From Nemertoderma westbladi (Eukaryota > Animalia > Xenacoelomorpha), in contig JAUCBJ010007915.1 in NCBI GenBank assembly GCA_032718475.1, positions 1-52,670 of the forward strand: a DNA stretch of 52,670 nucleotides, read 5' to 3'. Positions 18,921-50,153 of this stretch are shown in pieces (the stretch's first letter is position 1; each line of letters starts with the position of its first letter). Below the pieces are notes generated by a model. It was not told where the DNA came from, searched no databases, and saw only the letters and a list, made by a program, of their open reading frames with translations. The translations under genes and the position numbers were made by a program.

Positions 18921-19477
18921 TGTTAGCGTATTCAATTCCGCTAACACCCCACAAAGTAAGCCGTTAAGCAATATTGGGGGCCACGAGGTTGGGTAATCAA
19001 CCACTCGTGCCACCCCAACAAAGTGGGAAGGAGAAACACACAATAGGGGTCAGGGGCCACACCCCTGACCGAGAGAGAGCAGCAGGAGTGAAGGGAAACA
19101 CTCCAAAGGGCGCCAACAGGGATATTAGCCAATGGGGGGCAGGCACCGGCTAGGTACCGCAATAACGGCCAAACCGTGCAATGTATATTATTAGGTATCA
19201 GTGATTCTTAGTTCAGTTATCTCATTGTGTTAGTCAGTTAGCTAGGGTAGAGCGGAGACTTCTATTACCGTCCTCACCTACCACCATTATCTGTACATAC
19301 CGTAGTACTTCAATTGTTATCTATCCATTTTATACTATACCTATCTCAACGTTTATATTATACCTTCATACATATTACCGAACATCAGAACTCTTAACGA
19401 ACCTTTTCATATACACGGCGGGGACGCTTAGGTAGAAAACTCAAACGGATAAATTGGGATCCGTAGATCCCGTCACA
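18921..19477 (+). repeat. 5' LTR of element B (557 bp)
   Basis: tgttagcg...cccgtcaca; nearly identical to 49597-50153 (roughly a dozen differences by eye). Confidence 0.95.
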
Positions 19478-19514
19478 GTAATAGAATACCAGCTGCTACC
19501 CACAGTAATAGAAG
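19478..19514 (+). promoter_or_regulatory. Non-tRNA PBS of element B (GTAATAGAA, duplicated), complementary to LTR 19259-19268
   Basis: No TGG after the LTR. gtaatagaa (19478-19486) and gtaatagaag (19505-19514) are reverse complements of (c)ttctattac in the LTR. Confidence 0.55.
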
Positions 19515-19543
19515 CTATCGATCTAAAGATAAACTGCAAAGAG

Positions 19544-22196: not shown

Positions 22197-22274
22197 CCGC
22201 TCCCAGAAAATGGGATTTGAGTCTATAAAATATACAAAATCACAGTTTCTAATATACGTAAATACTCTAAACAG

Positions 22275-23724: not shown

Positions 23725-24540
23725 ATCTGCTATCTGAGTTTATTAATATTGTAATGAGTTTATGTTTAGGCGAGCGGGCGTCGCTGCCTACCTCTCTTCG
23801 CCCCGGACAGTGGGATTCTCAGCGCCGATGTACCGTCGTCGCGGTGTTTACGCCAACATGTAGCAACATCACGACAACGATAACCGGCACAAGTCACTCC
23901 ACTGTCCGTCCCAAAGGCTTGAATCCACTTTAGGTTCTTTCTATAGGAGAGTTGGGCTACTTTCACAATTGCGACTAGCTACTGTAAACACACCTTAGCA
24001 GTAATATTCACCTACAAACGCACAAATTCCACACAACTGTCACCAATTGTACACATACAGGCCATTTGTCCGTTAGTCAGTGCCTTCCAGAATGTCACGT
24101 TATTACTGTGTATCCTTGGATACTAACAGTGTGCTATGTATTCTCTATGCTATGCAACGTGACAAGCTTTCTATTGTTCTCTTAACTTGCTTCTAATTCT
24201 AGCATGGGTGTTGCTATGGTGACATTATGGAATGCTAGCGGTAGAATTAGGGTAATTCTCATGCATACAGATCTGGGATGCTATTTAATAATAATTCTTT
24301 AATTGTCAATATACTCTTTATGCATGATTTTATTAATTTTATCGGCTATTGACTATATGTTGGAGATTCTCGCACTCTAATACACTCAATAGGATGAATC
24401 TCCGCTCCCATGATCTATTAATTAATGGAATTTTGGGAATGTTATAAATTGCACAAAACGACAATTTATGAAATTCATTTAAAGTATGAATTTAAATTTA
24501 TTCCCGTGAATTTTATTATTTGATGTTAAAATTGACACAA

Positions 24541-24830
24541 TTTGATTCCAGAGCAGGTCTGGGGACATAGGATCCTTAATTCTATGAAAATTGTCTTTTA
24601 AGAGTATCGGTAAGTGCTGCGATATCTTAATTGACTAGAAATTTAAGGGATCTGAATTTTACAGATTTTAATAAATATTAAATTAATATTTAAGATGGGC
24701 ACCGATTTATTCCAGAACTTGTCTGGGGACGTTAACCACTGATTCTAGAATTTGTCTTTCAAGTATATCGGTGGGTGCCGCGATATCTTAATCGACTAGA
24801 ATTACAGATGGTCAAAAGGTTTAACAGATT
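24541..24830. repeat. Diverged ~165-bp direct repeat pair in the non-coding region between pol and the accessory ORF of C
   Basis: attccaga..gtctggggac...ttgtcttt.aag..tatcggt..gtgc.gcgatatcttaat.gactagaa occurs twice. Confidence 0.75.
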
Positions 24831-25348
24831 TATTTGCGTTTTACGCTACTGTTAGGGGGACATCACGCTACTATATGTATTATTTAATATAAGGTAGAAG
24901 AGCAATATCGCACGAAGCAATGTCAGTGTGAAGAGGCAAGTCGTTTCCAAGGTCTACCCAGAGCTTGGTTTAGCCGAGACACGAGGATCTGAACTTTGCA
25001 TTCCTAATACTCTGCCTACCAATAATACTTGAATATAGTAGTGGCTTTATTGTACTTTAAGAAGTACGGACATTTCATCTTACTGTAGTCACGTATTTAT
25101 AATATGATACGGACAGTAAGGAAAGAGAAAAAATTATTTCTCGCCGTCGCACTAAATATATATTATAAGTAATTACGTACGTAATAAACACTAATATATT
25201 GCACTAATCTACTAAACAATCACTAAAATAACATTCTACTAAATAAAATTGAATAAAAACGATTATAATAAAGTACATAATAAAGTTCGCATATAAAAAT
25301 ATAATAAAATAGATAAAATAATATAGTCATACACCCACTCCAGACGTA

Positions 25349-28300
25349 TCACGTGGGGGAGTCCCTAGATGTTTGAGGAATTAGGGAGGTGGTCGTGGGA
25401 AGAGTGTCTTGCCTTCCATAGTTTCCAGAGAGTTCTCTGTCTCTTTCCAGTAAACATAAACGACCAACTGGGCGATTGAGTTGTTGCGTCTCAAAGATTA
25501 TGCCTGGCTTCTTGAAGTTACGCCGCATGACGACAAGTTCTACTGAGCGCACTAAACCATCATCCGAGATGTGAGTTTCGATGATACGACCTGTCTGCCA
25601 CCGTTTACGTGGGAGGTCTGGATCTACAATAAGCACCATATCTCCGGCGCTGACGTTTTCTTGCTGCGCAAACCACTTAGTTCGAAGTTGTAGCGTGGGC
25701 AGATAATGTTTCTCGAAATGGTCAGCGAAACGACGGGATAGCAACTGCATAAGTTGCCAAGTTCGACGGCAGTATTCGTCTCCGTCGGCAATCTCCGATC
25801 GTGGGAGCATGGCTACAGGTTTCTTCAGTAGGAAGTGCGCGGGTGTTAGCGCTTCTAAGGAATCGGGACTCGATGAGACTGGCATAAGCGGTCTCTCGTT
25901 GAGATAGGCAGCTATTTCCTCCATTAACGTCCGCAAAAGTTCGTCGGTGAGATACGCGCGGCATGGCACTATAAAGTGAAATGCGGTTTTGACACTTCGA
26001 ATTAATCTCTCCCAACTTCCTCCCCACCAAGGGGCGTCGGCGGCGTTGAAGGTCCAGCTAGACGCTGTTATCCTTAGCTGGTCGTCCACCTGTCTTTGGT
26101 TCCAGTCCTTCACGTAAGCCTGTATTTCGTTGTTGGCACCAATGAAGTTCGTTCCCTTATCCGATCTCATGGTATTACTCGTCCCGAAGCGAGCGATCTG
26201 TCGTCGTAAACTTAAGACGAAGCTGTTGGTAGATAGATCGTTCACCATATCGAGATGGATGGCTCTACAAGTCATGCACACGAAGATGACACACCATCTC
26301 TTGACTATAGTCCTAGCACGATATACTTCAATAGGGCCAAATAAATCTACACCAGTATTAGTAAAAGGTGGTTCATAGAAGCTTACTCGTTCCCTAGGTA
26401 ATTCTGCCTCTCGCTGTGTTAAAGGCCTACTGAATGCTTTCCTACAGGGTATGCAGTTCCTAAGAACTTGGTTCAGAGCTCTACGGGGTTTATCAAAATA
26501 ATAGCGAGTTCGAATTTCGCTAAGAATTCGTTCTCTACCAGCTTTACTTTACTGTGAACATCTACAATCATCTTGATTTGTACTTCAAGATTTCTAATAA
26601 GTATGGGGAATTTGGTGTCAAAGGATAAGGGCGCATTGGTGAGTCTTCCTCCAACACGTATTAGCCCATCTATCATTGTGCTCGAGAATCGATCCCTTAA
26701 GCGCATCTGCGGATTTCTCAACAACAGGAAATACTTTTCGGAATCCTCATAGCATTGCAGGAGTCTCAATATCTGCTTATTGGTTTCTTCATGCTCCTGG
26801 TGACTAATTTTCTCCTTTAGAAAACGGTCAGATGTCTTATATTTGGGTAAATTTGTAATAACATGAACTTGTGCAGATGTCAATGGAGCGTTATCACTAG
26901 TGGTCTTCGTCCTGGAGTAGTGATGATGAAAACATCGTCTTAAATATGTGACGGCTTTACAAAGCCGATTCCAGGAACTGTAATGATGCATTGCTCTCTG
27001 CAGCATGGGTGAGATTCCTTGCGAGACGTCTGGTATTCCAGATTTCCAATCTCTATCTCTAATTTCCACAACAGACTTATTTGTGTTGAGGGATTGTGGA
27101 TCCGAAGCATCATTCCCGGAAGTATGTAATACAGATAGATCGATAGTCGGTTTAAATAACTTCGATTTACTCGCCCGGGTTTTAGGTTTGACTGTCTCCG
27201 CTCCCTTGGCTTGTCTAATCTCTGCCGTAGTAAGGTGAGGAGGCCATTCATCCTCTTCCTTGCTCAGGAAGTCGGGTCCACCCAACCAATCTGGAGTATC
27301 TATCAGTTCCTGTGGAGTTGCTCCCCTGGAGGCGATATCGGCTGGATTAATCGTACCAGGGCAATGTCTCCATTGATCTATCTTTGTGCGACTAAGAATA
27401 ATAGCTACTCTGTTAGTAACAAAAACGCTGAACTGACAGACTTCATTGGTTAGATACTCCAACACGAGTAAAGCGTCGGTCCAATAAACCGTTTTCTCCA
27501 GTGGATAGTCGATTTGTTCCGTTACGTTCCGGCCGATGGCTGTAGCGTATAAAGCCGCCTTTAACTCCGCTCGAGGAACCTTTAACTTGTTGTTAATCAA
27601 TGCCTTAGAGGTAACCAAGGCGACTTTGATTCCATCCGGAGTTTCGACTCGCAGATATGCTACTATACCTATTCCCATGTCGCTGGCGTCTCCAAACACA
27701 TGGAGTTGATAAGAATACGTAGGAAGAACATGGCCAAAATATGCACGGGAAATTATAAAGTTCTCGATGGCAGGTAGAGAATCTTCCCATTTCATCCATT
27801 TCTTTAACAATTCTCCCTTAAGCGGATCGTCCCATGAGTGGTTTTCAAGCCACATTTGTTGCACTAAACTCCGAGCAATCAATATAACTGGGCTAATAAA
27901 TCCCAATGGGTCGAAATAAGTGCTCAGGATACTTAAACAAATCCGTTTGGTCCGAACTGGATTATCTCGCTGTTTTAACTGAAAAAACAGGATGTCTCTT
28001 TCAGTGTCCCACTTCAAGCCTAGTGTCTTGGTTTCAGGAAGATCGTCCTTTATTAAGTCTAGGTCCTTCGTTCCTCGGTCTTCTACCGGTATGGCTTCCA
28101 GAAACTCACGGGAGTTGCTAGTGAATTTCGTCAGTCGAAATCCACCTCTTTTCAAACACTCTACCGTTCCTTTCGCGACAGCTATGGCTTCTTCTACTGA
28201 TGGAAGGGACCTTAAATTGTCGTCCATGTATATATTACGTTTTATGTTGTCTATCACTTCCTTTGAGAAGGAGTCTCGGTTGTCATTCGCAGTGGTTCGC

Positions 28301-31300
28301 ACCACGTAGCAGGCGTTGGAAGGGCTTGATATGATTCCAAAAGCCTGGATGGTCATCCAGTACTCTACCGGTTTCTGATTGAGGTCTCCTTCAGGCCACC
28401 ACAGAAATCTCAGGCTGTCTCTATCTCTATCCAGCGCCTTGACTTGTAAGAACATTCCTTCTATATCGGAGGCGAACGCGATGGAATATTGTCTTAATCT
28501 CAAAAGTATTCCCAACAAAGATTGGAGTAAGTTGGGTCCTGGTAACAACTCGGAATTGAGGGATTGGCCCATATATAGGGCGGAGCCATCGAATACGACT
28601 CGTACTTCGTGGGGTTTACCGGGTTTGGGAACGTAATGATGTGTTAAGTAATACGTTCTCTCAGTCACTGGTGTTCCTTCCGGTACTCGCTCCGCGTATC
28701 CCTTTGTTATAAATTTCTTCAGCTGAGTTTGGTACATTTCTTTCGCTGAAGCATTAGCTGTAAGGCGTCGATGTAATTGAGCGATTCTTTTCTCTGCCAA
28801 GGGTCTGTTATTTATAAATCTAGGTTCTCGTTTTCGAAATGGTAGGCCGATTTCATATCTACCTTGATCCTTTAAAAAACGTGTAGTTGTTTCCTGGATT
28901 TGCTTGGCTCTTTCTTCTTCTATCGATAGAGCCTTATCATATGAATTGGGCTCTACCAGTTCCTGAGTAAAGAATCGTACGGCTAGTTCGTCCCGAGTTC
29001 TAGCGTTGTAGCGCTCTATCTCATCGTTTAGTTCGTCATTGTAAGCGATGGGTTCCGATGGGCGAATCAGTTGACATAGGTTCACCTGATTTTTCCAAGT
29101 TTGGTTTTCTGTAAGTAGGTCGATTGTGTTCTCTTCATCGAAGAGTTGGTAGATGTCATCATTATCTGAGGAGTATGGTGTTCCCTCAGTTAGTTCGTCC
29201 ACCTCACTGCTCTCCACTTCCCAATCGTTTACTTGGTATATTTGTTCTTGTGGCATTCTCTCTTCGAGAGTCCTGCGGGAAGGGCCAGTAAAGTACCAAC
29301 CTACTCTAGTTCTTACCGCATAGGTTTGCAGTGGCTGCGGTTGAGCAGGTCGTTTCTCTAATGTTTCGAGCGCCTCGTGCGCGTTTTGGCCGATGAGTAT
29401 TTGCACTCCAGGATAATCTGTCTGGAATCGAGGTATCTTAAGATGTTGGATGCTCTCATCCTCGTCCCAATTATAAAGGTCTGCTTGAGTAGTAGCGAAG
29501 TTCTTTATAGCCACCATTTTTACCGACCTTATACCTTGTGCTCCTAACTTATCCTGGGGGGTGGACAACACACCTACATAGTAGTCTGCCGTTAGGGTAG
29601 ATTTCCAAACCTGCATAATTCCTGACATATTCAATTTAGTCCGGAATTTGGGTTGTCCAGCAAAGATATCTTCGGCTAATTCTTGATCGATGAATGTTCC
29701 TGTGCTGCCGGAGTCAAGGAGTGCGTTCACTATGTAACTGTGGTTAGGACCGTGAACTCTTACCGGCACTACAGGAAATTCTCTGATTCCTACGTTGGAA
29801 GTTGGAACTTTCCAAGATGGTTGTTTGGCAAAAGTAGTTGGGGGAAACTCATTGTTGGTGTCCTTTTCATAAGTAAGTGCTCGATACACTGCGGTATTGA
29901 TTAGATAACAGGATTCGTTGGCGTCGGAGAATTCGTCAGTATAGAATCCTTCCATCTCAGATTCTTGATCAGTGTCGTTTACATCACTGAATTGGACATG
30001 TAGTTCGGGCTCACTTACCTGACTCTGTTTGTCTCGTTCGAACTCACTGTGTAACAAGATGTGATGTTTCGCGCCACACTTTGCACACTTTATGTCGGAG
30101 TAACAGGTTCGCCGTTGGTGTCCTGGTCTGAGGCAATTATAGCATAACCGCTTATCCCATACGACTGCACGTCTGTCTACAAGGGATTTCTTTAGAAATT
30201 CAGCACACGCACTCAAACGGTGGGTACCGTCGCACAGCGCACAGTTAGGTTTTATGTTACTCACTTTACCTTGGGTAAACTGATGCACTCTCGTTCTTTC
30301 TTCGGGTTTTCTTCGGTGCATTCTGTTAGGAGACTGAGGAGGGGTCTTGGCAACCTGTTCTCTCCTATCGTTGTTTCGAGCCTTATATTTACTTACATCT
30401 TTTGAGGTTTTGTCAACGTAGTAAGATCTCTCAGTGTCTTTCCCGCTGTCCTCTTCCTGAGAAGCTTGGCTTTCGCCGTCGTCAGTGTAACACACCGGTG
30501 TTACTCTTCTCCTAGAAGCGGGTTTCTCACTTACCTTATTTTCCGATGTTTTCTCTCTGGACTGCTTGATGAGTTGTAGTTTTACCTCACCATCTAAGAA
30601 GGACATGAGATCAGCCATGGTAGGGCTTCGTCGTTGTTGTTCATTCATGTACAACACTTTCTTGTCCCAGCGTGTACATACTCCACCCTTTGGTAAAGTA
30701 GAGACTACTGCTCCAATAACCATGGAACTCTGATATTCATGAGACTTACCTAACCAATCCAATTGTCTACAGATCTCTTGAATCTCATCGGAAAACTCTA
30801 TAATCCCGCTACTAAGGAAGTGTCGGGGGGCTACTAATTTGGCATACAAATACTTAGCTATGTTATCCTTGTTACCATACCTGATGTTTAATGTATCCCA
30901 AACTTGTCTTAATCCTTCTGGATGTCCAATAAACTTTAACGCCATTAACTTGGGAGGTCCTTCCAAGCACTTGATGAGGAACCTAAGTTTCTCTCCGTTA
31001 GATAGTACAGAGTTCTGTATGCTATCTTTGTAATATTCATTGAAAGGTAACCATTTCATCTCATCTCCATTGAATTTAACGATCTCTCCCACTTTGACCG
31101 CTTGGCGGGCTTCTGTTCTAGCCATCTGAGGCGTAAAGCTTTCTTGGGCCATCGTGTTATTTAATATCGAATTATCGTTATATAAATTTCTCGGATCATT
31201 GTCAGGTCTATAGGGAATATCATTAATAACAGGTCTATAATCACCCTTAATAGGGTTTGCTATAGGAGTTTCTACTTCACTAGCAGTATAGATGCGTGTA

Positions 31301-33453
31301 GGCTCCACACCTTCCGCATGTAATACTTCAGACCTAACAGGTTGACACAATGTTACAGGGGGTATTGGTATGCCTTTTTGTATATTGACTAATTTGTCGC
31401 GTTCCAGTGCGATACTTTGCTGCACTTCTTGCAACTCTGCCCTACCTTCCCTTACTGTTCCCTTAAGCTGGTGGACAGTCTCCTGCATCTGTCCGAGCAG
31501 GAGATTCATCCCCCGCCGTCCCTCCTCTACCCACTCAACCGCCGAAGCGGGAGTCGCCAACATTGTAGCGGGCTGACGCGGGACGACGGGAGACAAATCT
31601 TTGATTTCTCTCTCAGCTTCCAGGACAGGGATATTCTCATGGACTGTTCTACCGGCTACAGGCAGTGTAGTACTATGTAAAGGGAATTTAGAGTTAAGCT
31701 CTGGAAGTACAGGAGTTTCTAGCACAGGGGTGACTTTGGGAATGACAGGCCTAATTATTTCAGGCTCATCAACTATAGTAGGGAGTCTTTTGACCTTAAT
31801 AATTTGGTCTGTAGGTTCTATACTACTTAAGTCCGTGCTAGCTAGTTGTCTTCTAACAGCTGGGGGCAAATCAGGCAATTTGTGACGGTGAGATGTTTTT
31901 CTACACCTGCTTAGACGAGATCTATTTCCTCCGCCTTCAGGATCGGTGGTTTCGCTTTCTTCCGATGATGTGTATCCCTGGCGTTTGGGAGTAGATTTTC
32001 TCATCATCTGCATGTGACTAGCAGTTAACTGTTTATTTATGTTGTCTTGCGTCTCTTGCAGATTTTCCAACTCCAGTTGGGTAGTCTCCTCAGACGCTCT
32101 CCGTTCTGCTTCTGCCACTGCCTTTGCTGCCTTTCTTTCCACTTCTGCTTCTGCCATTGCCGCTGCTACTGCTGCTGTCTTTCTTTCCACTTCTGCTTCT
32201 GCCATTGCCGCTGCCGCTGCTGCTGCCTTTCGGTCCACTTCTGCTTCTGCCATTACCGCTGCTACTGCTGCCGCCTTTCGTTCCTCAATCCGTCTTTTCT
32301 TTACTTGTTCTTCTTGGACTCTAGTGAGGCGGAGTTTTTCATCAAATTCAGCTTGGTTAGCAGCTAACATTTCAGCATCGATTGAGTCTAACACACGCTG
32401 GGTTCCTTCACTATTAGGGGAAAGTCCAGACAGCCGTCTCCTCAACTCTTTGTCTCCTAGGAATCGCTGATAGTCGGACAGATAAATGTCTATGGCGTCT
32501 CTCGTTCGTGGTCTCTCTGCGGTCTCTTCGCCTTCCACTCGAGAAAGGGTGGCATCGGTTGGTTCTTCATAGGTTAGTCTCTCAGACAGCTGGGATTTCC
32601 ACTGGTCCGTTTCTTGTACTTTGAGACCTACCCGCTGGAACCAAGTTTTGACAGCAACCTGCAGCGACGTGTCCTGTCTTCTTTTGGAAGTTTCCTCAAA
32701 AGCTGATAGGATTAGTCGAATGCGTAGGGTTCTTTCGCGTACTTGGTATAGCAGTTCTTCCTGCTCTTGAGGTCCTTGGGGTTGTCGAAACAGTTGTTCT
32801 TCTAATCGCTCTAAGGAGCCGAAGAATCCCTGCACATATCCTGCTGCCGACCTCTTCCAAACAGCTGGATCCATCGTATCTTTAGCCACTCCCATCCTGT
32901 GTATATCTTCCCAAGTAGCCTCGGACAGATCTAACGGGAGTCCGGGTCCGGGAAAGTTCCATTGTGACTCGACAATAGACATCAATTCTTCCCTGGCGTA
33001 TCCCGCATAATTATCTTGGGTCGCTCGCTTATTTCTCGCCCAATCGGCTTGATGTTCTTCCACCGCAATCAATATAGTAGTTAGCACTGCGGCAGGAAGG
33101 GTGAGAAGGGGGTCCGAGTAGGCTTTAGCCGCCATCTGCAATCCGCGTTCGGGGGTCAGCTCGACAGTATCCGAATTACTGGAGCTATCGGATCGCTGGG
33201 AACAAGTTTCTTGACTAGGCTGTTGCTGCTGTGGGACAGCTGCTTCCTGGTTCCGTTTGACTTGGGCCCGAGTGCCGATGATAGACCTACGGTGTTGGAT
33301 TAGCTTAGGGTCTGATACTTCTACTGGAGGGATGACCTTTCTTTCAGTAGGAGGTGAGCTGAACTCCTTTCTTAATCGCTCCACACTCCTATCTGTGTCA
33401 CAGATGGTTGTATCGATTAGACTGTCTGATAGGTTTTGCTGGGTGTCAGACAT
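25349..33453 (-). CDS. Element C Gag-Pol polyprotein (Gag, aspartic protease, RT, RNase H, integrase), single frameshift near 26545
   Basis: Triple Gag knuckle CALC..H..C / CYNC..GH..C / CAKC..HH; LLDSGS protease; RT VRVVFDGS, SDIEGMF, YMDD (28219-28230); RNase H LHVFGDAS, VPRAEL; integrase GVDLFGP, RSDKGTNF, GGSWERLIRSVK; YLPTLQLRTKW. Confidence 0.95.
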
Positions 33454-34765
33454 GTTTAGCTATACAGTTGAATGCTTACTGCTATAGTTACAGTTAAAGC
33501 AAGTCTAGTAATTCAGTATGACCGTTGGCTTAGTACCGGTAATTTATTGCAGTATATTAGAATACCGGTATGCACTTATAATTTATATAAGTATTGTAAA
33601 CTAGGTTTATCACAGAGTACCGGTATATAAATTTAGCACAAATATATAAATATATAATAGGCCTATCGTGAATACCGGTATACAGCTTACACTTATAGTA
33701 TATATAAGTATAATTATGGACTAGAATTAATTACAGAGTACCGGTATGATTTCAGCTCAAATTTATAGAAATAAATATAATAAGCTTATGGTAAATACCG
33801 GTATGTCAATTATTTTAGAATAATTGAATTTCTGAATATTTTAGGGTTACTTGGTTACTTTAACTTACTTTATTACCGTTATTTAAGCAGTAGTCCAACT
33901 GATATTGAGACCTAGTTGTTGTATGGCAGGCCTACTATTTATAAATCGTTTGAGTTGATTTATAATAGATATATACCCGTTTAAAAGGGGTTTTGTCAAT
34001 ATTTGAAATAAATGTTATTATTTCTGGGGGAGTCACTACACAGAAGCTGTGCGCTCTCAGTGAAGTGCTACCTATGGGACACTAAAACAGATAATTCTAA
34101 TTTACCTAAGTTACTTAATACTACAAATTGCTTACGATACGGGTGAGATTAAATCTCTAATTAAACACAACAAAATATTACGTACGAATTTTTAGGGTAA
34201 TTTTACAGGAAGTCTACAAACCAGTCTAACAAAGGGTTAGAATTCGGTTTATTACAACGGACAGGGTACTATGGTATTTGAAAATAATAAGTAGTAGTAA
34301 ATATATTGCACTGTCCAGATAGGAAAATACCACCGCCTGACAACCTATAGCCGTATCGCTATAGGTACTACGTTATGTATCACGGAGTGTTCCTACCTAG
34401 AAGTTAATTATCGCGGACTACCAGATCCAACGTGCCTATTAACCACTTTACAACACAAATATACTGCCTACACACTAATTACTTTCGGAAAGCACTGTAC
34501 ACTAAACCCTAAATTAGGTACAAGTACTGGTACAACAAATAATCAGTAGTTAAATATACTTGAACAGTTAAAAGAACCACGGCATCTGCTGGAGTGACCG
34601 AAGCACAAAGTCACCAGTCTTTTCCTACGCCAAGCAGCCCGTGTAGTACCGGGGTTAATTTAACTATAACGGTATGTGTAACAAACACAATTACTGTAGG
34701 AATAAACTTGGGGACATGAATGTTGCGAATAATCGCATAAACTCTGAATAATATATATTACGCTA

Positions 34766-35335
34766 CCCGTACAGAATACTCAAACAAAATACAAACCAAA
34801 CGCTGGCAGACTACCACCAAGCCTAAATAAACTACAGTATGTGCAGATTCCAAAATGGTTAGTTAGTATGCGTTCTAACACGGTAGTACGACTTATTCTT
34901 TAAGAGGGGATTGACCTTACAGCTATGGCTGCCCCAACTTACTAACTGGCACTCTATCGGACAAACTCTACACACGCAGCAATCTCTTCAGACCTAATAA
35001 TAGCTAGACAACAATCCAGCCTACAAAATATCTGAGTAATAACTATTACGGTACCTGAACAGACCACACAAACAAACACAGGCCAAAACGTTGGCAGAAT
35101 ACTGTCAAGACTAAATAAACTACAGTATGTGCAGATTCCAAAATGGTTAGTTAGTATGCGTTCTAACACGGTAGTACGACTTATTCTTTAAGAGGGGATT
35201 GACCTTACAGCTATGGCTGCCCCAACTTACTAACTGGCACTCTATCGGACAAACTCTACACATGCAGTAATCTCTCCAAACCCAACAACAATCCGACAAC
35301 AGTCCGGCCTACAATTATCTGAACAATCTGAGCAG
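34766..35335. repeat. 288-bp tandem duplication in the leader of element C
   Basis: agttagtatgcgttctaacacgg... starts at 34861 and at 35149. Confidence 0.9.
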
Positions 35336-35494
35336 ACTTACACGTCTTCAGCTCAATATTAACTTACATGTAAATAAAACTGACAGAAATAAGTAAGCTC
35401 CAAAAGAAACAAGGGGTGTACAGTCCCTAATCTCTTAAACAGCCTACCGGTATGCAATAATCAAATCGAATAATACTAATGTACTTATACTGGA

Positions 35495-35618
35495 AGTACC
35501 GGTTAGGACAGTTGGGCCTACGGACCTACAGAAGTACCGGTTCTGGCAGTTGGACCTACGGACCTACAGCAGTACCGGTTCTGGCAGTTGGGCCTACTGA
35601 CCTACAGAAGTACCGGTT
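35495..35618. repeat. 38-bp tandem repeat (~3.3 copies) with ACCGGT palindrome core near C's PBS
   Basis: agtaccggtt....cagttgg.cctac.gacctacag repeated at ~35495, 35533 and 35571. Confidence 0.8.
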
Positions 35619-35673
35619 CAGTTTTACCGGTCGACCGGTACTTTCAACTTTATTGCTTACTGCAATAAAGTCA

Positions 35674-35684
35674 ATAACTGTTAT
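35674..35684 (-). promoter_or_regulatory. Non-tRNA PBS of element C (ATAACAGTTAT), complementary to LTR 36436-36446
   Basis: Abuts the 5' LTR and lacks TGG. Plus-strand ataactgttat is the reverse complement of ataacagttat at 36436-36446 (and at 21689-21699 in the other LTR). Confidence 0.65.
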
Positions 35685-36943
35685 TGTACGCGCTTTTGAA
35701 GACCTTTAGCAGTTTAACCTGCCAAAATTTATATGTCTTTTGGTTTATAAATAGACTTTAGAAGATGACAAATATTTAATACCAATAAACACAACATTAG
35801 CAGAAGCCAGCCTAGTGCGCGTCCATTCACCCGCTGGATATACCCGGGAGACTGGATTCTGAGGGCTTAGATTATTATTGCAGTGTAAGCTTACTGTACT
35901 GTATTATTCGATTGATCGTTAATAAATAATTTCTGACTAATATTATTCACTTTCGGGAAATATTAACAGTTCCTTTAGGACGTGGCGCTCTATCTAGGTA
36001 AACAGAGATATGACTTATACTAATCACAACGGCAAGTCGGTAAGGCTTATGATTCACGTATGAGGCGCATTCTTTAGGAAATGCTTAGTTATCAATCATA
36101 ATCATGCACACTACCGGTAACACACAATACTGCCCACTAATTTGCCGACCGTCAATGATTTTTATCATATATAAAGAGAACAGCAACGGACCAATGTAGT
36201 GCTTATCAAATAGCATTAAATTCACTACATACACAATAATATAAGTCGCAATCGCTATATATAACCCGTCTCTCTAACCTGTAGTGTATCAAGAAAATTG
36301 GGAAATTTGGGTTCTTTATAAATATTCTCCAAATAATATTCAACCAAACAATAGCAAATAGCAGTATAATAATGTATATTGAACCGATAATGTAAGACTG
36401 AATTGCGATCAGTTGATATGATTAGATAAGATATGATAACAGTTATACGCTCTATAATTTAAGCCTACTAATGTTTCTTCTAAAGTATGAAAACGAATTG
36501 ACTCTAGAGCCGGTGTTCCTGGCCTAGATAGCAACAACACAACAGTATCAAAAAACAGTAAGACTGAACACTCCTAGTATGATCGACCGAATATCTACAC
36601 ATCGACAGAAAAAATCGCTCTGATTGGCTCAAGCCAAACAAAGAACCATGCGTCCAATGGCTGTTTCCATGCCAGCAACCAGCTGCTAGATGTCGCAATC
36701 TGAATCATCACGGCTAAGCTGTGAAAGGTATTTGGTGCATTGCAGGTTTTTTGCCTTACCATGTCCGCCAAAACACGTATATAGCAGAATGACTTTTATG
36801 TCCGTTAAAACACCTATAACGGTACCTTGCGGGCGAGGAGAATATATATATAGTTATAGAGCCTTTTAGAGTATTCCAGCGCCTAGGGGGGAAACTGGAT
36901 TGCGAAGCAAAAGGGCCAGTTATATCCCACAGAAGCTTTTACA
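35685..36943 (-). repeat. 5' LTR of element C (1259 bp)
   Basis: Direct repeat of 20938-22196; TG...CA termini; minus-strand CCAAT box at 36616-36627. Confidence 0.96.
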
Positions 36944-36948
36944 GCCGT

Positions 36949-39900: not shown

Positions 39901-42900
39901 ACATACCGGTGGGGGGGGGGACAGGGTGACATTCCCCCATCACAATATCAACAATATACCCCAATAGGAGCAAGAACAACGAACCCCTTGAATGGAAATA
40001 GGTCATGCGACACAGAAATATGGAGGGGGCCGCTACCCCCAATGATATACCCAAGCCAGAGGAAGACAGGAAATAGGACGGACGGACCGCACCTAACAGG
40101 ATAAACTATACAACATCCATCGAACCCATTGGAAGCGCAGGCGATGGGAATGGCCACGTTAATAGATGCGCTAAAGACAAGGATCGAGCTACCACCCGTG
40201 GAACCATTTAAATTCGATGGGAGTAGGCCAGAAGAATATCTACAGTTTCGGCGCATGTATAGTAACGAAATACTAACAAAGAACTTGACGCAGGCGGAGT
40301 GCCTAAAATATCTCCAAGTATACACACGAGGCCCAGCATACGACATCGTGAGGCAATACCAGGGTATAGAGGGTGGCTTCACGACGGCATGGTGGGCATT
40401 GGACAGGGAATACGGTCACCCAGCCAAGATCATCCGGCAAACCCTGAGAGGCATAACATCGGGTGGCCTACAGGATAGTCCCGTTGGCATTAAGACATTC
40501 GCGAACAAGGTCGAGAAGGCGCTAATCGTGTTAAAGACGCTAGCCGCGCCATACGAACTCAACGCGTCCAACAACATCACCACGATAGCGTAGGCACTAC
40601 CGATGTGGCTGCGCAACAAGTGGAGGAAAATCGCTTTCTCCACTCGAGATAGGAAGGGTGCGGAACCGGGTTTAGAAGAAATGTCAAGCTTCTTAAACTA
40701 CGAAGCTGAACTAATAACCGACCCAGTCTATAGTGAGGACAGCCTGGGAAAGGGACCAAGAACCGATTACCATAGACCGAAACCAGAACACAACACGTCA
40801 AACGCATTACCAAGGTCAGGCAATCATTGCCATAAGCAGCGATGCAGGGGACTGCAAGTCCACAGGTAGCCGAAGGTAAGACCACACCATGGAACGGACA
40901 GGGGAATAATAACAACACAAATAAATATAACCCTAGTACGCCCAGTAGGCCGAACCCAAACAACAAGAATAGTAGGGACTTTGGTGCAAATGCAACTGCG
41001 ATACGCAATGCACTGCATAAGGAGGGCTACAACCCAAAGAGCAAATGCCAGCTACATACAAATGCACTTCATCAAACCATGAACTGCAGGTACTGGCAAG
41101 CGCTACCCATGGAAGATCAGGTAGAATATGCGGCGAGAAATGAGATCTGCTCGCGATGTGTGATGAGTGGACATAGAGCTAGGCAATGCAAGGAGACGCC
41201 GGTCAAGTTCGGTCAAAGGAAAGGCCAAACGATGGCAACGAGCACGGTAGGGGCGAAAAAGAGAGGAACGGTGCTACTTGGGGTAGTACCAGTGCGAGTA
41301 ATTGGAGAAGGCAATCGATCAGTAACCACACTGATGCTGGTTGATAGTGGAGCTGCCTTCACATTAATCGAGGATTGGGTGGCCGAAGAGATAGGATTGA
41401 GAACGAGGCCGAGTAGAATGGCGGTAACAACCATCTCCAGCAAAGATGAGGTCCTGGAGATGAGAACCGGACGGTGCGCCATCGCAGCAATAGCACCAGG
41501 ATGCGACTATGGGGCGAGCATCGACCCCATCCAAGTGATAGAGTCAATAAACATCAATGCCAGACGGCCAACCAACATCGAGGTCGAACAATATAAATTT
41601 GTGGATGATATCGACTTCTCAATCCCAGAGGTGGACGTTAGGAAGGTATCCATCATAGTAGGAATGGACTGCCCAATGGCCCACGAAAGAATGCAAACGG
41701 TCTTCGGCGAAGACAAGCAGTGTGACCCGGTGGCGATACTGACACCATTCGGGTGGACGCTGAGTGGCCCAATCAAGAGCAAGATACCATTTAGGATGTC
41801 GGAGACATCAGGATGCATGTTCGCGGGAACTATGCAGGAAATGGGTGATGAGAGAGCAGAGGAGCAGCTTAAGAGACTGCTCAGACAGGATTTTGAAGGA
41901 TTAAAGGAGATCGGGGTCGGGACCTCGGTGGAAGACAAACAGGCTCAACAAAGCGTAGAGGAGTCTATGAAATGCGATGAAGGGCGGTATACCATAGGGA
42001 TGGTATGGAAGCTACCAAAGCTACCATTGCCCGATAATAAAGGGATGGTGCTCACGAGGCTTCGTAAGTTGACGCAGACACTAAAACGGAGCCCCGAGAA
42101 GAATGAGTACATCCACAGAACAATTAAGAAGTACGTCGAGAAAGGATGGGCCGTGGAGTTACCGGTCGACGAACCAAACACGGATAGGACATATTACCTA
42201 CCACTTCACGTGGCTTTAGACCCGAAGAAAGGTAAACTGCGGATGGTAGTTGACGCATCGGCAAAGACCAACGGAAAATGCTTAAACGACTATCTACTAG
42301 AAGGTCCGAACATATACAACTCAGGGATAGAGGTCCTACTTAGATTTAGAAATGTGAAACACGCCTTCACGTGTGACATAGAAGGCATGTTCAACCAAGT
42401 CCGTGTAACGGAGGAAGATAGCGACAGTCAACACTTCTTATGGTACAACGGTGACGAAGAACCGTCGATAATACCGACGTACAAGATGATAGTACAGAAC
42501 ATGGGAGCCAAGTCGTCTTCAAGGGGAAGGAGGATAGATACAGCACTAGGGCCGTCGATATGATTCGACGCGGCTTCTACGTAGACGACGGAATGGAGTC
42601 TGGAAATACGGTTAAGGAGATACTGTACACCGGGCGCGAGGTTCGCGACATCCTAAAAGGATCCGGCTTTAACCTGACCAAATTCCAATCCAGTTTGGAG
42701 GAATTTATCAAGGCGATAGTGGACGAGAGACCAGAATCGACCATGGATAATCCCACAACGGCCAAAGGGCAGGACATGGCGAGCAAGAGGACAGAGTCTC
42801 AACAGAAGGCACTGGGAATCGTGTGGAACAGAGAGACAGATGAACTGAAGTACCAGCTGAGCCAGGAGGGCGCAGACATCCACACAAAGAGAGGCTATGT

Positions 42901-44758
42901 GTCATACATAGCAAGAATATACGATCCCCTAGGTCTAGCATCCCCACTATTAGTCACGGGGAAACAGATACTCAAGAGAGTATACAAACTGAAGGAAAGC
43001 AAAGCGAAGCGAAGTCAACGCCGCCAGATTCAGCATCAGTTCCCAAACTAGAATTGACAGCTGCCAGACTAGGAGTTAGGGCCACAGCCTACCTAGTGGA
43101 TACTATTCCCAACATAGTGGAGACACACTACTGGACGGATTCCATGGTAGTGCTTGGTTGGCTACATAACGAAAGGACGAGATACCCTATATTCGTCACG
43201 AATAGGGTGGACGAAATAAGGGCGACCACAGAATTGGAAAGGTGGCACTACTGCCCAAAGGACGAGAACCCAGCGGTCTTGTTATCGAGGGGCGTGGTAC
43301 GCCACACTTTCTTGAAGAAGGAAGTATTGTGGCAACACGGGCCACAGTTTCTGAGCGACAAGGAGGCCTGGCCGCCGATGAGAAAGGTGGACCCGGGCTC
43401 GGGAGAAGCAGTATCAGAGGGAGAAGAGGGAGATTCAGAGGGAGAAGAGATATACTCCCAGATGGTGAGGGAGATAAGGGACGTGCAACCTAAACTAGAA
43501 GAACTGTGCGATAACCTGATGGATAAACTCCTCAGATACAGCTCTAGTTGGTATAAGACCAGGAAATTAGTGGCGTACTGGAGAGCCTTCGGGAATTTCC
43601 TCGCGGGAGTTGGCAAAGGCAAGAAGATCAGGACAACCATAGATCTGGAAGGAGCGGCTAAAGCAGTCATCAGCTATGAACAACGGAAGAACTACGGCGA
43701 CGAGGTGGAACGCGTCGGTAAGCAACAGCATCTTCGACGGGACAGCGAGTTAATCACGCTGTCACCACAACTTAATGATGATGGGATTCTAGTAATGAAC
43801 TCTAGGGTGGGCTACAACAACAGCATCGTTGTACCGCCGAAGCCCATCATCATCCCAACAGGATCGCCAATAGTCCACCAGATTATCTGGGACTCCCACA
43901 AGTCGATATTGCACGGGGGCACCAACCGAACCCTTACGGAGATACGGAGGACCTTTTGGGTCAAGCAGTTGAGGAAGAAGGTAAAAGCGGTAGTGGGGCA
44001 GTGCCAGACCTGCCGACGAGCGAAGAAGGAGCGAGCCACACAGGAGATGGCACCACTACCGGCGAGTAGGGTAAGACAGCACGACCCGCCATTTACGCAT
44101 TGCGGTGTGGACATGTTCGGGCCGATAAAGATCAAAGTGATGCGGCACACGGAGAAACGCTACGGTATTATCTTCGTATGTAACAACATGCGGGCGGTAG
44201 GGATAGAACTCGCCCAAGATGCAACCGCATCAGCATTCATTAATGCATTAGAAAGGTTCAGAGACCGCAAAGGTGGGACGATCGCAGTAATGTACTCCGA
44301 CAGCGGAACCAACTTTGTGGGAGCAGAGAACGAGATGGCAGAGGCCTTGGACATCTTGGAAGGGGAGGAATTCAGGGCAGCCATGAGACGACGACAAGTA
44401 AAGTGGGAGAGAAGGACGCCGTATGCACCACATACACTGCCAGAGTTGGAAGGTCGCTAAAGCGATAAGCGCAGAGTATTGGAGGAGGTGGATTGAGGAA
44501 TACCTACCCACGCTTCACAAAAGAAGCAAGTGGAGGAAGTCGAATAGGGAGTTAAGAGAGGGAGATCTCGTAATCGTTACGGATGATACTATCATCAACA
44601 ACCAGTGGCGGTTGGCGAGAGTTGTAGGCACTTACTCCGATGAGGACGGAAGAGTCCGATCGGTAGAAGTGCGGATAGGTGGCAAGATAGGTTCGAAAGA
44701 CAGAAAAACCTACAGGAGAGCTGTAGGGAAATGCTGTCTATTAGAAGGGGCACCTTAG
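36949..44758 (+). pseudogene. Element B gag-pol remainder, disrupted by stops, frameshifts, deletions and a duplication
   Basis: Gag FKFDGSRPEEY, CQLH..H..C / CSRC..GH..C; protease LVDSGA; RT KLRMVVDASAK, CDIEGMF, YVDD (~42578); integrase HKSILHGG..CQTC, GVDMFGP, YSDSGTNF; YWRRWIEEYLPTL. Confidence 0.92.
37987..39241 (+). repeat. ~1.25-kb tandem duplication within B gag (second copy; first copy is 20730-20937 + 36949-37986)
   Basis: Near-identical sequence differing mainly in poly-G run length; contains the empty target site agggccgtggataa with a single GCCGT at 38190-38194. Confidence 0.93.
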
Positions 44759-44899
44759 AGTGGAGTTAGAGTGTAGTTTAGTCGTCCAAGTCTTGGACTG
44801 AGGGGGGTGGGATTGAGGGTGAGACGCCCTTCCCACACATAAAATAAAAAATAAAATAAATAAAAATTAGAGTTAGTTAGTTAGTTAGGAGTTAGAAGG

Positions 44900-45292
44900 A
44901 GTTAGAAGGTACGTAGTACCTAGAGTCAGGAAACAGTTAGTTAGTTAGGAGGTACGTAGTACCGTTAGTTAGAGAGTTAGTTAGTTAGGAGGTACGTAGT
45001 ACCGTTAGTTAGTAAAGAGAGTTAGTGGAGTTAGTAGAGTCAGAGTAGTAAGAGGGTACGTAGTACCATTAGTTAGTGGAGTTAGAGTAGTAAGAGGGTA
45101 CGTAGTACCGTTAGTTAGTGGAGTTAGAGTAGTAAGAGGGTACGTAGTACCATTAGTTAGTGGAGTTAGAGTAGTTAGAGGGTACGTAGTACCGCTAGTT
45201 AGAGGTATTGGAGTAAGAGTTAGAGGGTACATAGTACCGCTAGTTAGAGAGAGAGAGAGTAAGAGTTAGAGGGTACGTAGTACCGATTAGTA
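44900..45292 (+). repeat. ~42-bp tandem repeat (9 cores GGTACGTAGTACC) downstream of B pol
   Basis: Cores at ~44908, 44951, 44991, 45055, 45097, 45139, 45181, 45226 and 45272, separated by TTAG/GAG-rich linkers. Confidence 0.88.
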
Positions 45293-45763
45293 ATAGGGGT
45301 AGAAGGGATATGTATAATATGGATATTAGTTAGCAGTCAGTAGCGAGAGGGGGGCATATGAGTACAGTTGGATAGATCGTGTAGGCCACGCGACATATAC
45401 TGCTGTACTGCACAGGCCCATAGAATAGGTCAGAATGTGGATTATGAAATAGAATAATCCATAAACAGTAAATAGTAGAAATAGATCAAAATAAAATAGA
45501 ATAAGAATAGGGCTAAAAATTTAACAAATTATAGTAACAGTAGGAAAGAAATTCTGGAATACAATAAAAGTAACTGACAAAACTGCAAATTAGGGTACAT
45601 TTAATAGCTTCAAAATTAAGTAGTAGGGATTTAGGCTATAAGGCGAAATTAGACAAGGAATAGGCCATTATCGGACCGTACAGACCATCCTAGCTGCATC
45701 ACTCACTTATATTGCGCCTTGGAAAGGCACCACCTTATAGGTGAGCGATCGGGAGAGTTCGAA

Positions 45764-48328
45764 ATGGCGGGGAAGCTGATCAGGAAGAGAAAGGCGGAGT
45801 CAGGAGGAAAGGAGATACTGGTGGATTTCACCAAGAGGCATCCGGAAGAGAGGACGAGGGGATACTATGACCGTTTAGGAAAGGGTCACTCAGCATGAGC
45901 GCTACAGGACCACTTCAGGGAGATGCATGAACAGCGGCTGGTCGGGACCTACGGGACGCCGTCGCTGGACAACGCGATCTTCGAGCATTTCCACTACGTG
46001 ATGAAAGGGGACAAGGCGAAGTTCGGGATTCCGAAGTACGCGAGAGAGTCACCGAGGAAAGATTGGAGGAGGTTCATAGAGTCCGGCAACAGGGGAGGAT
46101 ACATGATCCTAGACGACGAAGGGACCGTGGAAGACGAGGAGGGTTCAAGGAGAGGATCGGCAGGATCGGCCAGGACCATACTCCTACATTTGGCCGCGCC
46201 AAATGGGGACATTTTCCTATTTGACCTGGGAACGTATGGGAAGAAGGATGGGCCGAAGTTGGACCGGCTGCCGAGGGCGGTGCAGGTCCTAGTAAGGGAG
46301 AAGTCGACGACGAAAGTGGGATCGGCGATTCGCGAGGACGCGGAGAGAATCATCGGTCCGGACGCCACCAACCTCCTGGATATGCAGAAGGTCTTCATGG
46401 CTATGACAGCACCAGACGGGTTAGGAGTAGTCGGGAACACAGGCCAATGCGGAGCGGTGGCAATGGGCCAGCTATTGGGGCTCGTATGCCACAAACCGAT
46501 GGACTGGGGGAAGTTCAGGGAGGAATACGGAGCAGAACTAGCGAACTCGCTAAAGTGGGGAGCGAGACCGGGAAAGCAAGAGGTGTATCAATTCCGAAGA
46601 GGAGCGATAAAGGTATATCAGAAGCGATATATCCTGCAGGAAGATTGGATAATGATAAGTTTGCTTAACTTATTCATGACCGTGGTTATCGAGAGGGAAC
46701 CAGCGGCATTTCTGTTATCGGGATCACCCCTAAGCTACAGAAGAGCCTTTAAGACGGCTTTCGACGGTCTGGTAGACCACCCGGGGCTGAAGGGCGAGTC
46801 GGTGTACTACAACAGCCGACATCTGGTAGACGGGGAGATAGATACGCCGTATCAGAGATGGGAGGAGCTAGAGACGGATAGACGAGAGGCGAAGCGACTG
46901 GAAGAAGTCGCTAGACGGGAAAGGATAGAAGCAGAGGAGAGGGAGGAGGAGGCCAGGACGCAGAGTCACGGCTTCGAGGAACAGGCAGGCTTAGATGAAC
47001 TTCGTTGGGCTTCATCAGGGAGTTCGGGGGAGTCTCTAGGGCGAGAACTGGGATGGACGGTGGGATCGCCGAAACAGTCAACGTCGGGGTTGCAAGCGAT
47101 GCCCATACCAGCGGGCGCCGAAGGCGACCAACCGCTAAGGAAGTTAGGGGAGCTAGAGGGATGGAGAGCTACGGGCGAAAGCCAAGGCGGGAAGGGACAT
47201 AGTGGATCCACCGGGATACCGGGGTTGGAGACACTGCCAGAGGAGGATGAATACGACGACGAGTTCGGAGAGATGCCGCCCATCGGGAGGATAGGCCACT
47301 CGGACACGGATTGGGTTGGCGGGAGGGTGGTGACGGCCAGTGGGGCGAGGACCTTCTGGGATAGACCCAGCAAGCGGGCCTGGGTGCACGAGGAACCGGC
47401 GATGGATTTCGCGGGGAGCACTATCAGGTTGGGCGAGCAACCAGGGACGGCACCTCGGGTAGTATTCGGGGAGACGATGCCCGAGAGGGGCGAGGAGATC
47501 GACGTAGACAGGGACACTAACGTCCAGAAGTTCGCCTACCAGCGACTCCACAGACCGCGGAGATCGCTTGGGACGGAAGACGACGTGGGGCGGGATACAT
47601 TGGTGCTCGGCTGTGACTACTTTGGGAGACAGACCCACCAGGAAAGGAGCTGTTTGTACCGATTCCAGAAAGGGACTAGTTGTCTCTACTGCCGCGAGTC
47701 GAGCCACAGGATGGGGGCGTGTCCACGGTTGCATAACCGATGTTCGAAGTGTAACTTTCGGGGACACTACGAACGCCAGTGCGACCGGATGGACGATGAA
47801 GAGAAGTTCAGAATCTTCGAGGAGTGGGCCGACGTTGGGGCCATGACGCGGCAACGCATGAAGGCCCAGGAGTTCAAGTGGGGTTTCTTCCTTATCAATC
47901 AGGAGGCTCACTTGGAAATCATAAAGCAGAGGTTACCGTTTACCTATCAAGAGGTAGCAACGGCGGCGTCGTATGCCGGGGTGATAAATACACAAAGGTA
48001 TTTGGACAGGTGGATGCCATAGAACCGAGGGGAGTTTAGGGATTTCCTGGCGATGCACGTGCCGCGGGCAATGAAGATGATCTTATGGGACACCACCAGG
48101 GGGAGACAACAGGGCCACACGGAGGGGCCACCCGCGAAGCGATATCGGGAGCTGATAACGCCGGCACCCAAGGAGCCAACGACCGGGAGCAGTAAGGAGG
48201 TGGCGGCGAGAGTCCGAAGACAGAAAGCGGATCCCAGAGGAGCGGTAGTGATCAGGAAACGACCCAGGGAGGAGGACGGCAAAGGGAAAGACTTGAGGTG
48301 GTTCCCAAAGTCAGGGGGGATAAACTGA
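45764..48328 (+). CDS. Element B accessory ORF: DEDDy-like 3'-5' exonuclease + coiled coil + triple CCHC module (~854 codons, two in-frame stops at ~45896 and 48020)
   Basis: ATG 45764, ORF 45923-48022 and ORF 48053-48328 share one frame. Motifs MILDDEG, ILLHLAAPNGDIFLFDL, LPRAVQVLV...KVGSAIRED, LLDMQ, QKRYILQED; knuckles CLYCRESSH..C and CSKCNFRGH..C. Confidence 0.78.
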
Positions 48329-48819
48329 GACTTCGATGTGGTACGCCTGGAAGGCGCCACGTGAGACGTGCGAACTATTAAGTACAAATTTAAGTAATCT
48401 AAATAATCAAATAAGTGCAATTTGTATGTACGTACGTAATAGCCAGTAATCTACGAGAATACATACGTTCGAAGTAAGTACTATAGTCATTCAACCTTTC
48501 TCAATTAGCTACTGGGACTGGGGGGCCAACTGACTATGGCACTATGGACGAGACACCAGACGATTTCACACTTCTTGAGTGCGACGGCACAGGAGGGGGG
48601 TGAGACTCGTCAGAAGGGATGGGGTAGTCAAAGAGGGGTCGAGTGAGGGTGATAGTGCGGAGTACGGAGAGAGTGCGGATGCAATTCAAGTGTGTGGGGG
48701 GGGAGGATAAGAGACTGAGTGAGGGACAGGGAAGTCCGAGAGTTAGAGCGAAAGAGAGGAGAAGTAGAGGAGAGTCAGGGTGAGAACAGAGTGGAGTTGA
48801 AGCGGCGAAAGTGTTGGGG

Positions 48820-49375
48820 TGTTAGCTTATTCAATTCCGCTAACACCCCACAAAGTAAGCCGTTAAGCAATATTGGGGGCCACGAGGTTGGGTAATCAAC
48901 CACTCGTGCCACCCCAACAAAGTGGGAAGGAGAAACACACAATAGGGGTCAGGGGCCACACCCCTGACAGAGAGAGAATAGCAGGAGTGAAGGGAAACAC
49001 TCCAAAGGGCGCCACCAACAGGGATATCAGCCAATGGGGGGCAGGCACCGGCTAGGTACTGTAACAACGGCCAAACCGTGCAATATATTATTAGGTATCA
49101 GTAATCAGTTATTCAGTTATCTCATTTGTGTTAGTCGGTTAGCTAGGGTAGAGCGGAGACTTCTAAGACCGTCCTCGCCTACCACCATTACCTGTACATA
49201 CTACACTTCAATTGCAATATATTACACCATTTATACTATATCCATTTAACGTCTACATTATACATATCAGAGAATCAATAACACCAGAACTCTCAAACTC
49301 TTTCCACACAAACGGCGGGGACGCGTACTTTGAACAACCGCGGATAAACCGGGATCCTCCTTGGATCCCGTCACA
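48820..49375 (+). mobile_element. Solo LTR of a B-related subfamily inserted in B's 3' region
   Basis: tgttagc...cccgtcaca, homologous to B LTRs but with a diverged 3' half; flanked by TSD TGGGG (48815-48819 and 49376-49380). Confidence 0.9.
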
Positions 49376-49587
49376 TGGGGAAACAAAAGTCGTGTGAGAG
49401 GAGCGCACGATCGGCCCGACATGGGACGCCAGGCGAACCGGGTAGCATTATCATACCCATAGGGAGCGGCCTGAAAAACCGGCTCCGAGAGAAAATAATA
49501 CCACCCCACGCCCGATACTAGATCGGGATCCAGCGGAATTGTAGCGCACTTTAGGTGGATGCTATCTTCTCACCGGGAAGATAGCAT

Positions 49588-49596
49588 GGGGGGGAG
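49588..49596 (+). promoter_or_regulatory. Polypurine tract of element B
   Basis: GGGGGGGAG immediately before the 3' LTR. Confidence 0.85.
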
Positions 49597-50153
49597 TGTT
49601 AGCGTATTCAATTCCGCTAACACCCCACAAAGTAAGCCGTTAAGCAATATTGGGGGCCACGAGGTTGGGTAATCAACCACTCGTGCCACCCCAACAAAGT
49701 GGGAAGGAGAAACACACAATAGGGGTCAGGGGCCACACCCCTGACCGAGAGAGAGTAGCTGGAGTGAAGGGAAACACTCCAAAGGGCGCCAACAGGGATA
49801 TTAGCCAATGGGGGGCAGGCACCGGCTAGGTACCGCAATAACGGCCAAACCGTGCAATGTATATTATTAGGTATCAGTAATCAGTTATTCAGTTATCTCA
49901 TTGTGTTAGTCGGTTAGCTAGGGTAGAGCGGAGACTTCTATTACCGTCCTCACCTACCATCATTATCTGTACATACCGTAGTACTTCAATTGTTATCTAT
50001 CCATTTTATACTATACCTATCTCAACGTTTATATTATACCTTCATACATATTACCGAACATCAGAACTCTTAACGAACCTTTTCATATACACGGCGGGGA
50101 CGCGTAGGTAGAAAACTCAAACGGATAAATCGGGATCCGTAGATCCCGTCACA
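49597..50153 (+). repeat. 3' LTR of element B (557 bp)
   Basis: Direct repeat of 18921-19477. Confidence 0.95.

Follow-up and report, generated by a model that had tools for sequence, protein, structure and literature searches.

A probable DEDDy-type exonuclease joined to zinc knuckles in the third ORF of a BEL/Pao retrotransposon of Nemertoderma westbladi

Downstream of the integrase gene of a decayed BEL/Pao retrotransposon (element B) in the xenacoelomorph Nemertoderma westbladi we found an 854-codon frame, ORF3, that we interpret as a conserved accessory gene likely encoding a 3'-5' exoribonuclease of RNase D/WRN type with CCHC zinc knuckles attached. By analogy with trypanosome RNase D, intact ORF3 would trim RNA from the 3' end, on a target that we infer; counter-silencing, a blunting of the host small-RNA defence, is the main role that we favour, as a tentative choice. 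The analysis covered positions 1 to 52,670 of contig JAUCBJ010007915.1 (assembly GCA_032718475.1; hereafter the window), a stretch of animal DNA containing nested LTR elements, the features of which are collected in Table 1.

Table 1. Features of the nested BEL/Pao elements in the window
Feature	Position	Strand	Remarks
Fragment C, candidate self-priming leader start	2680-2691	-	12 nt
Element B 5' LTR	18921..19477	+	TG...CA, 557 nt
Element B LTR site complementary to PBS	19260..19268	+	candidate self-primer 3' end
Element B gag region, 5' part	19436..20937	+	split by element A
Element B candidate self-priming PBS	19478..19486	+	first 9 nt past 5' LTR
Nested BEL/Pao element A	20938..36943	-	5-bp target duplication; inserted in element B gag
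Element A ORF3	22275..23739	-	two frames; knuckle module homologous to element B ORF3; basic C-terminus
Element A, candidate self-priming leader start	35674-35684	-	11 nt
Element B decayed gag-pol	40105..44758	+	several pieces; DUF1759, aspartic protease, RT, Peptidase_A17 (RNase H), integrase, DUF5641
Non-coding spacer	44759..45763	+	40-42 nt tandem repeats at 44880-45291
ORF3	45764..48328	+	ATG 45764, stop 48328; between integrase and 3' LTR
DEDDy-like 3'-5' exonuclease domain	46097..46696	+	includes W265
ExoI of DEDDy-like domain	D117 (46112), E119 (46118)	+
ExoII of DEDDy-like domain	D192 (46337)	+	
ExoIII of DEDDy-like domain	Y289 (46628), E293 (46640)	+
Charged, coiled-coil-like stretch	46859..46963	+	aa 366-400, 69% E/K/R/D/Q
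CCHC knuckles (one incomplete, two canonical) and conserved W-containing motif	47612..47839	+	common to element A ORF3
Additional internal LTR-like copy	48819..49375	+	~87% identity to 3' LTR
Polypurine tract	49588..49596	+	sequence ahead of 3' LTR
Element B 3' LTR	49597..50153	+	target duplication, 4/5 bases match

The assignment of the host element to BEL/Pao, made in the sequence-only reading, was borne out by Pfam searches, which found DUF1759, aspartic protease, Peptidase_A17, integrase and DUF5641 in element B (PF03564, 2e-11; PF13650, 4e-6; PF05380, 1e-7; PF17921, 8e-13; PF18701, 4e-26), Peptidase_A17 being the Pao RNase H (PMC3985635, in part); the RT was identified solely via its similarity to that of element A. 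Element B has the Pao-type order of pol domains and a DUF1759 gag, together with a polypurine tract and TG...CA LTRs within the 0.2-1.2 kb of Belpaoviridae, and its two LTRs share 544 of 556 aligned bases. The layout LTR-gag-pol-ORF3-PPT-LTR and the pol domain order resemble those of Belpaoviridae with an env-like third ORF (PMC8742986), but the ORF3 of element B is not env-like and an apparent self-priming site stands in place of the tRNA-Arg/Gly PBS. It is possible that the repeats in the spacer upstream of ORF3 are regulatory or binding sites. The LTR-like copy just upstream of the polypurine tract and 3' LTR is more diverged.

Element A, the LTRs of which (20938-22196 and 35685-36943) are 99.9% identical, is younger than element B, and the Pao markers DUF1759, Peptidase_A17 and DUF5641 are present in both. 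A third Pao fragment (C, positions 1-3990, minus strand) has 75-84% similarity to the 5' part of element A, including a 288-nt leader duplication. Beside the insertion of element A, the gag region of element B has a direct 1-kb duplication (36944-37986 versus 38190-39241, 98.6%), and 20720-20937 recurs at 37977-38194; these repeats reflect either rearrangement or an assembly artefact. Elsewhere in the window a 36-nt unit is tandemly repeated ~130 times (10865-15750), in an array that holds an open frame of 1,624 codons, and there are two uninterrupted frames, one for a fibrinogen C-domain protein (17588-18685, E-value 1e-49) and one for a Ras-family GTPase (6832-7488, 1e-59), which are possibly intronless genes or retrocopies.

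The extent of ORF3 is as first read, but its openness is not, as two in-frame stops had been left out of the earlier account (45896-45898 and 48020-48022); ORF3 is thus not open in this copy, its stop-free middle amounts to 707 aa, and the element B copy in the window is dead. Frame +1 nevertheless has just these two internal stops, versus 18-49 in the other five frames. Of the further landmarks that had been claimed, the motifs LDDEG (46109), LLHLAA (46181), IFLFDL (46211), KVGSAIRED (46313) and QKRYILQED (46619) all lie where they had been placed, basic patches occur at both ends (45782 and 48251), and a charged coiled-coil-like stretch is present, as judged from composition alone. Hydropathy over 19 residues peaks at 1.44, on the ExoIII helix, so that ORF3 is without a transmembrane-grade segment and, as the sequence-only reading had held, is not env; in keeping with this, no signal peptide was seen by eye at its basic N-terminus and no Pfam match suggested fusogen homology.

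The putative exonuclease domain has the ExoI DxE, ExoII D and ExoIII YxxxD motifs in the order and spacing of the DEDDy family, with the four acidic positions and the tyrosine all occupied (D-E-D-E-y) and with Glu293 replacing Asp in the ligand column, a position at which nearly all of 34 reference domains have Asp. The ExoIII spacing had been called atypical and is not, since QKRYILQEDWI aligns gap-free with the family pattern QxxYAAxDAWI and places Glu293 in the ligand column. Among the differences listed between the window and other copies (see below), the one at codon 293 is silent in all four sequencing runs, and Glu is therefore the family state there.

No blind search names this domain. 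There was no exonuclease match in Pfam, PHROGs, NCBIfam, the PDB sequences or either of two large protein searches, and three cuts of the domain, put through the Pfam check suggested in the sequence-only reading, brought up 0 families at E ≤ 10, so that the PF01612 cut-off was not reached; a search of the ESM Atlas gave, as a lead only, a match of 0.84 to a cluster carrying PF01612 on 34% of its members. We therefore based the DEDDy assignment on directed tests, for which we built a reference profile of 42 PF01612 domains (41 bacterial and one Egalitarian-like viral, with no animal EXD/mut-7 sequences); the Egalitarian-like viral sequence, used as a query, returned no homologues. With hmmsearch --max the ORF3 domain scored 6.3 bits versus 1.2 for the best of 300 shuffles, a P of 2.5e-4 that holds for a single comparison and is too weak for a scan of 24,736 families. 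When seven DEDDy blocks were required in order, ORF3 scored 46.8 versus 11.6 ± 5.0 for shuffles (0/300 as high; z = 7), with gap ranges chosen when the ORF3 sequence was known and a hypothesis formed after reading it. The highest score for the reversed domain or any of seven other ORFs in the window was 17.9, and among 100 E. coli frames of at least 200 aa only RNase D lay above ORF3, the DnaQ frame being next at 36.6; a held-out distant true member scored 68.3.

Profile alignments gave mixed results. Global hhalign covered 175 columns and scored 19.3 versus 7.5 for the best of 60 shuffles, at a probability of 8%; local hhalign gave no separation (21.59 versus 21.56 for shuffles), and with a WRN-like sub-profile ORF3 did not beat the shuffles. 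A count of invariant columns in a MAFFT alignment was dropped as evidence, as 3/60 shuffles reached 8/14. Identity to the reference domains is 11-23%, with insertions around ExoIII. An unguided AlphaFold model was unusable (pLDDT 37) and fold searches with it were uninformative, yet it does have three strands, a helix and then helices at the expected places. A second model, guided by 34 family members and hence circular, reached a pLDDT of 68 and a TM of at most 0.49; its match to WRN (Z 11.8, rmsd 3.3, 167 residues aligned) indicates compatibility only, and it further matched NrnC, TbRND and Nibbler, the Z for WRN being tied with others. Thus one part of the original claim, a DEDDy domain of RNase D/WRN-like type, gains support from the ordered motifs in a directed test, but blind recognition of the domain failed. 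As the remaining tests were weak, circular or negative, we go no further than to consider DEDDy ancestry of the ORF3 N-terminal domain very probable; the exonuclease is probably also catalytically active in intact copies.

Where three knuckles had been counted, two are canonical (CX2CX4HX4C, at 47681 and 47741) and the first (47612) is incomplete, being without its second Cys. The knuckle region matched a zf-CCHC cluster in the ESM Atlas (0.88), and no PF00098 match was obtained for ORF3 in Pfam. A comparison within the window identified the ORF3 of element A as a homolog to this region (28% over 104 aa, E-value 5e-7), with weaker matches to either gag (0.002-0.04). We detected no exonuclease motif series in the element A ORF3, which had an ordered-block score of 5.8. 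Since the knuckle protein is common to both elements, ORF3 is modular, with the nuclease either gained in B or lost in A; it gives the impression of having been added to a knuckle protein, one that occurs by itself in element A.

To ask how ORF3 fares in the rest of the element family, contigs from four public runs (at most three samples, from three studies) were mapped over 39000-50400. Summed contig depth, which is not equal to copy number, was 29,000-62,000 in ORF3 bins versus 45,000-90,000 in pol in X1, and 22,000-52,000 versus 28,000-66,000 in X2, and long contigs of the outer flank had depths of 12-37. As no contig spans both pol and ORF3, we infer from depth that the two are linked in other copies; parts of ORF3 are skipped in some contigs. 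The mapping tool listed 40 of 1,615 differences, a small sample of its own choosing, 16 of them in ORF3. Among those listed, all nine of the ORF3 differences that are polymorphic (<95% of depth in X1) are silent, and six of the seven shown by nearly all contigs, and so private to the window copy, alter a residue; in integrase the polymorphic differences listed are likewise silent (6/6) and the private ones replacements (4/4), the neutral expectation of the silent share being 0.30. Eight of the nine silent ORF3 sites fall in codons 254-293 and none in ExoI or ExoII. Small as the sample is, ORF3 still behaves as a selected gene, like integrase, and the window copy as a dead one. This depth resembling that of pol and the same silent-site bias as in integrase also speak against the possibility that ORF3 is a one-off captured fragment.

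Searches beyond these runs and the window found no relatives of ORF3. The 707-aa piece had no homologues in the protein search, nor did the knuckle part among shorter proteins, and searches of metagenome contigs, viral contigs and plasmids found none. The sole match among 1.84 billion representatives, to a tandem-repeat protein over 19 residues, was rejected as unrelated. An integrase query matched one 1.5-kb contig, which came without flank.

A TGG tRNA-type PBS after the 5' LTR is absent from all three Pao elements of the window; where Belpaoviridae have an 18-nt tRNA-complementary PBS, all three have a complement of 9-12 nt to their own LTR. In an exact-complement test few of 5,000 shuffles were as good (11 for element B, 6 for element A and 1 for fragment C). 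The primer-PBS RNA duplex of element B has an energy of -25.7 kcal/mol (0/100 shuffles as low); for A and C this energy was not significant (42/100 and 34/100 shuffles) and only the exact-complement test was, and whole-region folding of the element B leader did not improve on that of shuffles (z -0.2 and -0.7). Between A and C the complementary bases differ, and the match is kept at a similar offset (498 and 488). Based on this complementarity, all three look like candidates for self-priming independent of tRNA, and half-tRNA priming may be an alternative. Self-priming of the Tf1/Sushi type uses as its primer the 5' end of the element's own transcript, cut beside the duplex. The arrangement in the window resembles the self-priming known for Tf1/Sushi, Tcn1 and TAR elements (PMC6317226, in part); passages of that paper and of PMC3601003 contain no report of self-priming in BEL/Pao. 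The ICTV profile gives tRNA-Arg/Gly as the PBS of Belpaoviridae (PMC8742986), a family description with which the apparent self-priming of these three elements is at odds.

In our favoured explanation, intact copies would express ORF3 separately from gag-pol, across the 1-kb spacer, and the basic ends would direct the protein to RNA granules or the nucleus. Single-stranded RNA would be held by the knuckles, which would pass its 3' end to the two-metal D-E-D-E-y site, as in Trypanosoma brucei RNase D (TbRND), and in those compartments the enzyme would trim or degrade element-directed small RNAs or their precursors. Counter-silencing was preferred over trimming of the primer or of the element's own RNA because element A appears to be self-priming without a nuclease and because unrelated rotifer retroelements share DEDDy ORFs (PMC5408684, in part), which points to a benefit beyond any one priming mode. 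That TbRND trims small RNAs with an exonuclease and CCHC knuckles (PMC7797062, in part) supports the proposed role. The composite scenario, a self-primed BEL/Pao lineage in which element B armed a modular knuckle ORF3 with an active exonuclease that destroys host small RNAs, is unlikely to be correct in full. Mature piRNAs are 2'-O-methylated and Piwi-bound, and so are shielded from such enzymes, which counts against counter-silencing.

We consider it rather doubtful, though worth weighing, that the enzyme acts instead on the nucleic acids of its own element, either trimming the cut self-primer at the LTR boundary as far as the edge of the duplex, or tidying other RNA or cDNA 3' ends in the particle. 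Element B is without a tRNA-type PBS and the end of its complementary LTR site would coincide with the LTR boundary, its knuckles are weakly gag-knuckle-like, and 3'-end processing has been proposed for the rotifer and Dada DEDDy domains (PMC5408684 and PMC3706591, each in part). However, the younger element A looks self-priming with an ORF3 that shows no exonuclease motif series, which makes it less convincing that the nuclease is there to trim the primer, and packaging into the particle is not assured, as ORF3 is not fused to gag-pol. The primer of Tf1 is made by RNase H alone, and this also counts against primer trimming. That ORF3 proofreads reverse transcription by taking mispaired bases off cDNA 3' ends is highly improbable: although the family includes polymerase proofreading domains and WRN, and the guided model has its best (tied) Z with WRN, there is no fusion of ORF3 to RT, its knuckles suggest RNA, and element A does without the nuclease.

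The two other alternatives concern the domain itself. That it derives from a DEDDy enzyme but is catalytically weak or dead and, like EXD1, Egalitarian or Maelstrom, binds RNA or acts as a scaffold seems to us unlikely: strong divergence, insertions around ExoIII and the Asp-to-Glu change there, which other copies keep, would fit such a role, and inactive DEDD derivatives are known (PMC5408684, in part), yet the four acidic positions and the tyrosine are still filled, and rotifer ORF3s changed from DEDD to DEED were judged possibly active in the same source. Quite improbable is a domain of other than DnaQ fold, from an unrelated alpha/beta accessory protein whose motifs resemble those of the family only by chance. 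The lack of a library match, the profile tests that failed against shuffles and the post hoc hypothesis, with gap ranges set knowing the sequence, speak for chance; the ordered motifs, which place ORF3 above 99 of the 100 control frames, the succession of strands and helices in the unguided model and the Atlas lead speak against it.

Among known systems, the rotifer precedent cited in the sequence-only reading is real, as DEDDy ORF3s are described in Juno and Vesta, LTR retrotransposons of bdelloid rotifers, and in Athena/Terminon elements (Rodriguez et al. 2017, PMC5408684, in part; see also PMC6431247, in part). These resemble ORF3 in that an RNase D-like DEDDy domain forms a separate ORF3 after pol, lacks TM and env features, has one altered acidic residue and has a function that is predicted only in both systems; they differ in residing in LTR lineages and Penelope-like elements rather than BEL/Pao, in their DEED versus DEDE motif, and in having no coiled coils, a Cys-His-Cys motif in two families only and, in the passages of that paper, no described knuckle array. 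In TbRND (PDB 7C42-7C4C) a DEDDy exonuclease is likewise followed by C-terminal CCHC knuckles, which hold single-stranded RNA while the two-metal DEDD site trims its 3' end (PMC7797062, in part), but TbRND is a cellular mitochondrial enzyme with four knuckles ~30 residues past the domain, whereas ORF3 is transposon-borne, has two or three knuckles ~300 residues away and is likened to it by family membership only. Dada DNA transposons also encode a DEDDy exonuclease, which differs in lying inside a DDE transposase, in keeping all four DEDD residues and in being proposed to act on DNA ends (PMC3706591, in part). The best structural matches to the guided (circular) model were the WRN exonuclease, EXD2, Nibbler/mut-7, Egalitarian and EXD1, and the ExoII KVG-x4-D of ORF3 fits the WRN-like group; these are cellular genes, and with tied rows from a guided model no nearest subfamily can be named.

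An opinion paper counts the DEDDy domain as a well-known LTR accessory (PMC6338049, in part). We found no literature report of a DEDDy ORF3 in BEL/Pao, and the passages of PMC3118150 and PMC13524379 make no mention of an exonuclease, though Repbase, Dfam, subscription journals and supplements may contain such elements. What is new here is probably the host superfamily, BEL/Pao, for a probable DEDDy-derived accessory gene, and its fusion to knuckles. ORF3 thereby extends to BEL/Pao the design of rotifer elements in which an exonuclease occupies the place of the envelope, under selection like that of integrase. The window in addition offers a natural pair, element B with nuclease and knuckles and element A with knuckles alone, that allows a direct comparison for the roles of accessory ORF3s. 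If our favoured reading is true, ORF3 would be a transposon-encoded nuclease directed against animal small-RNA defence, and as such would give a concrete explanation of how animal LTR elements resist small-RNA silencing.
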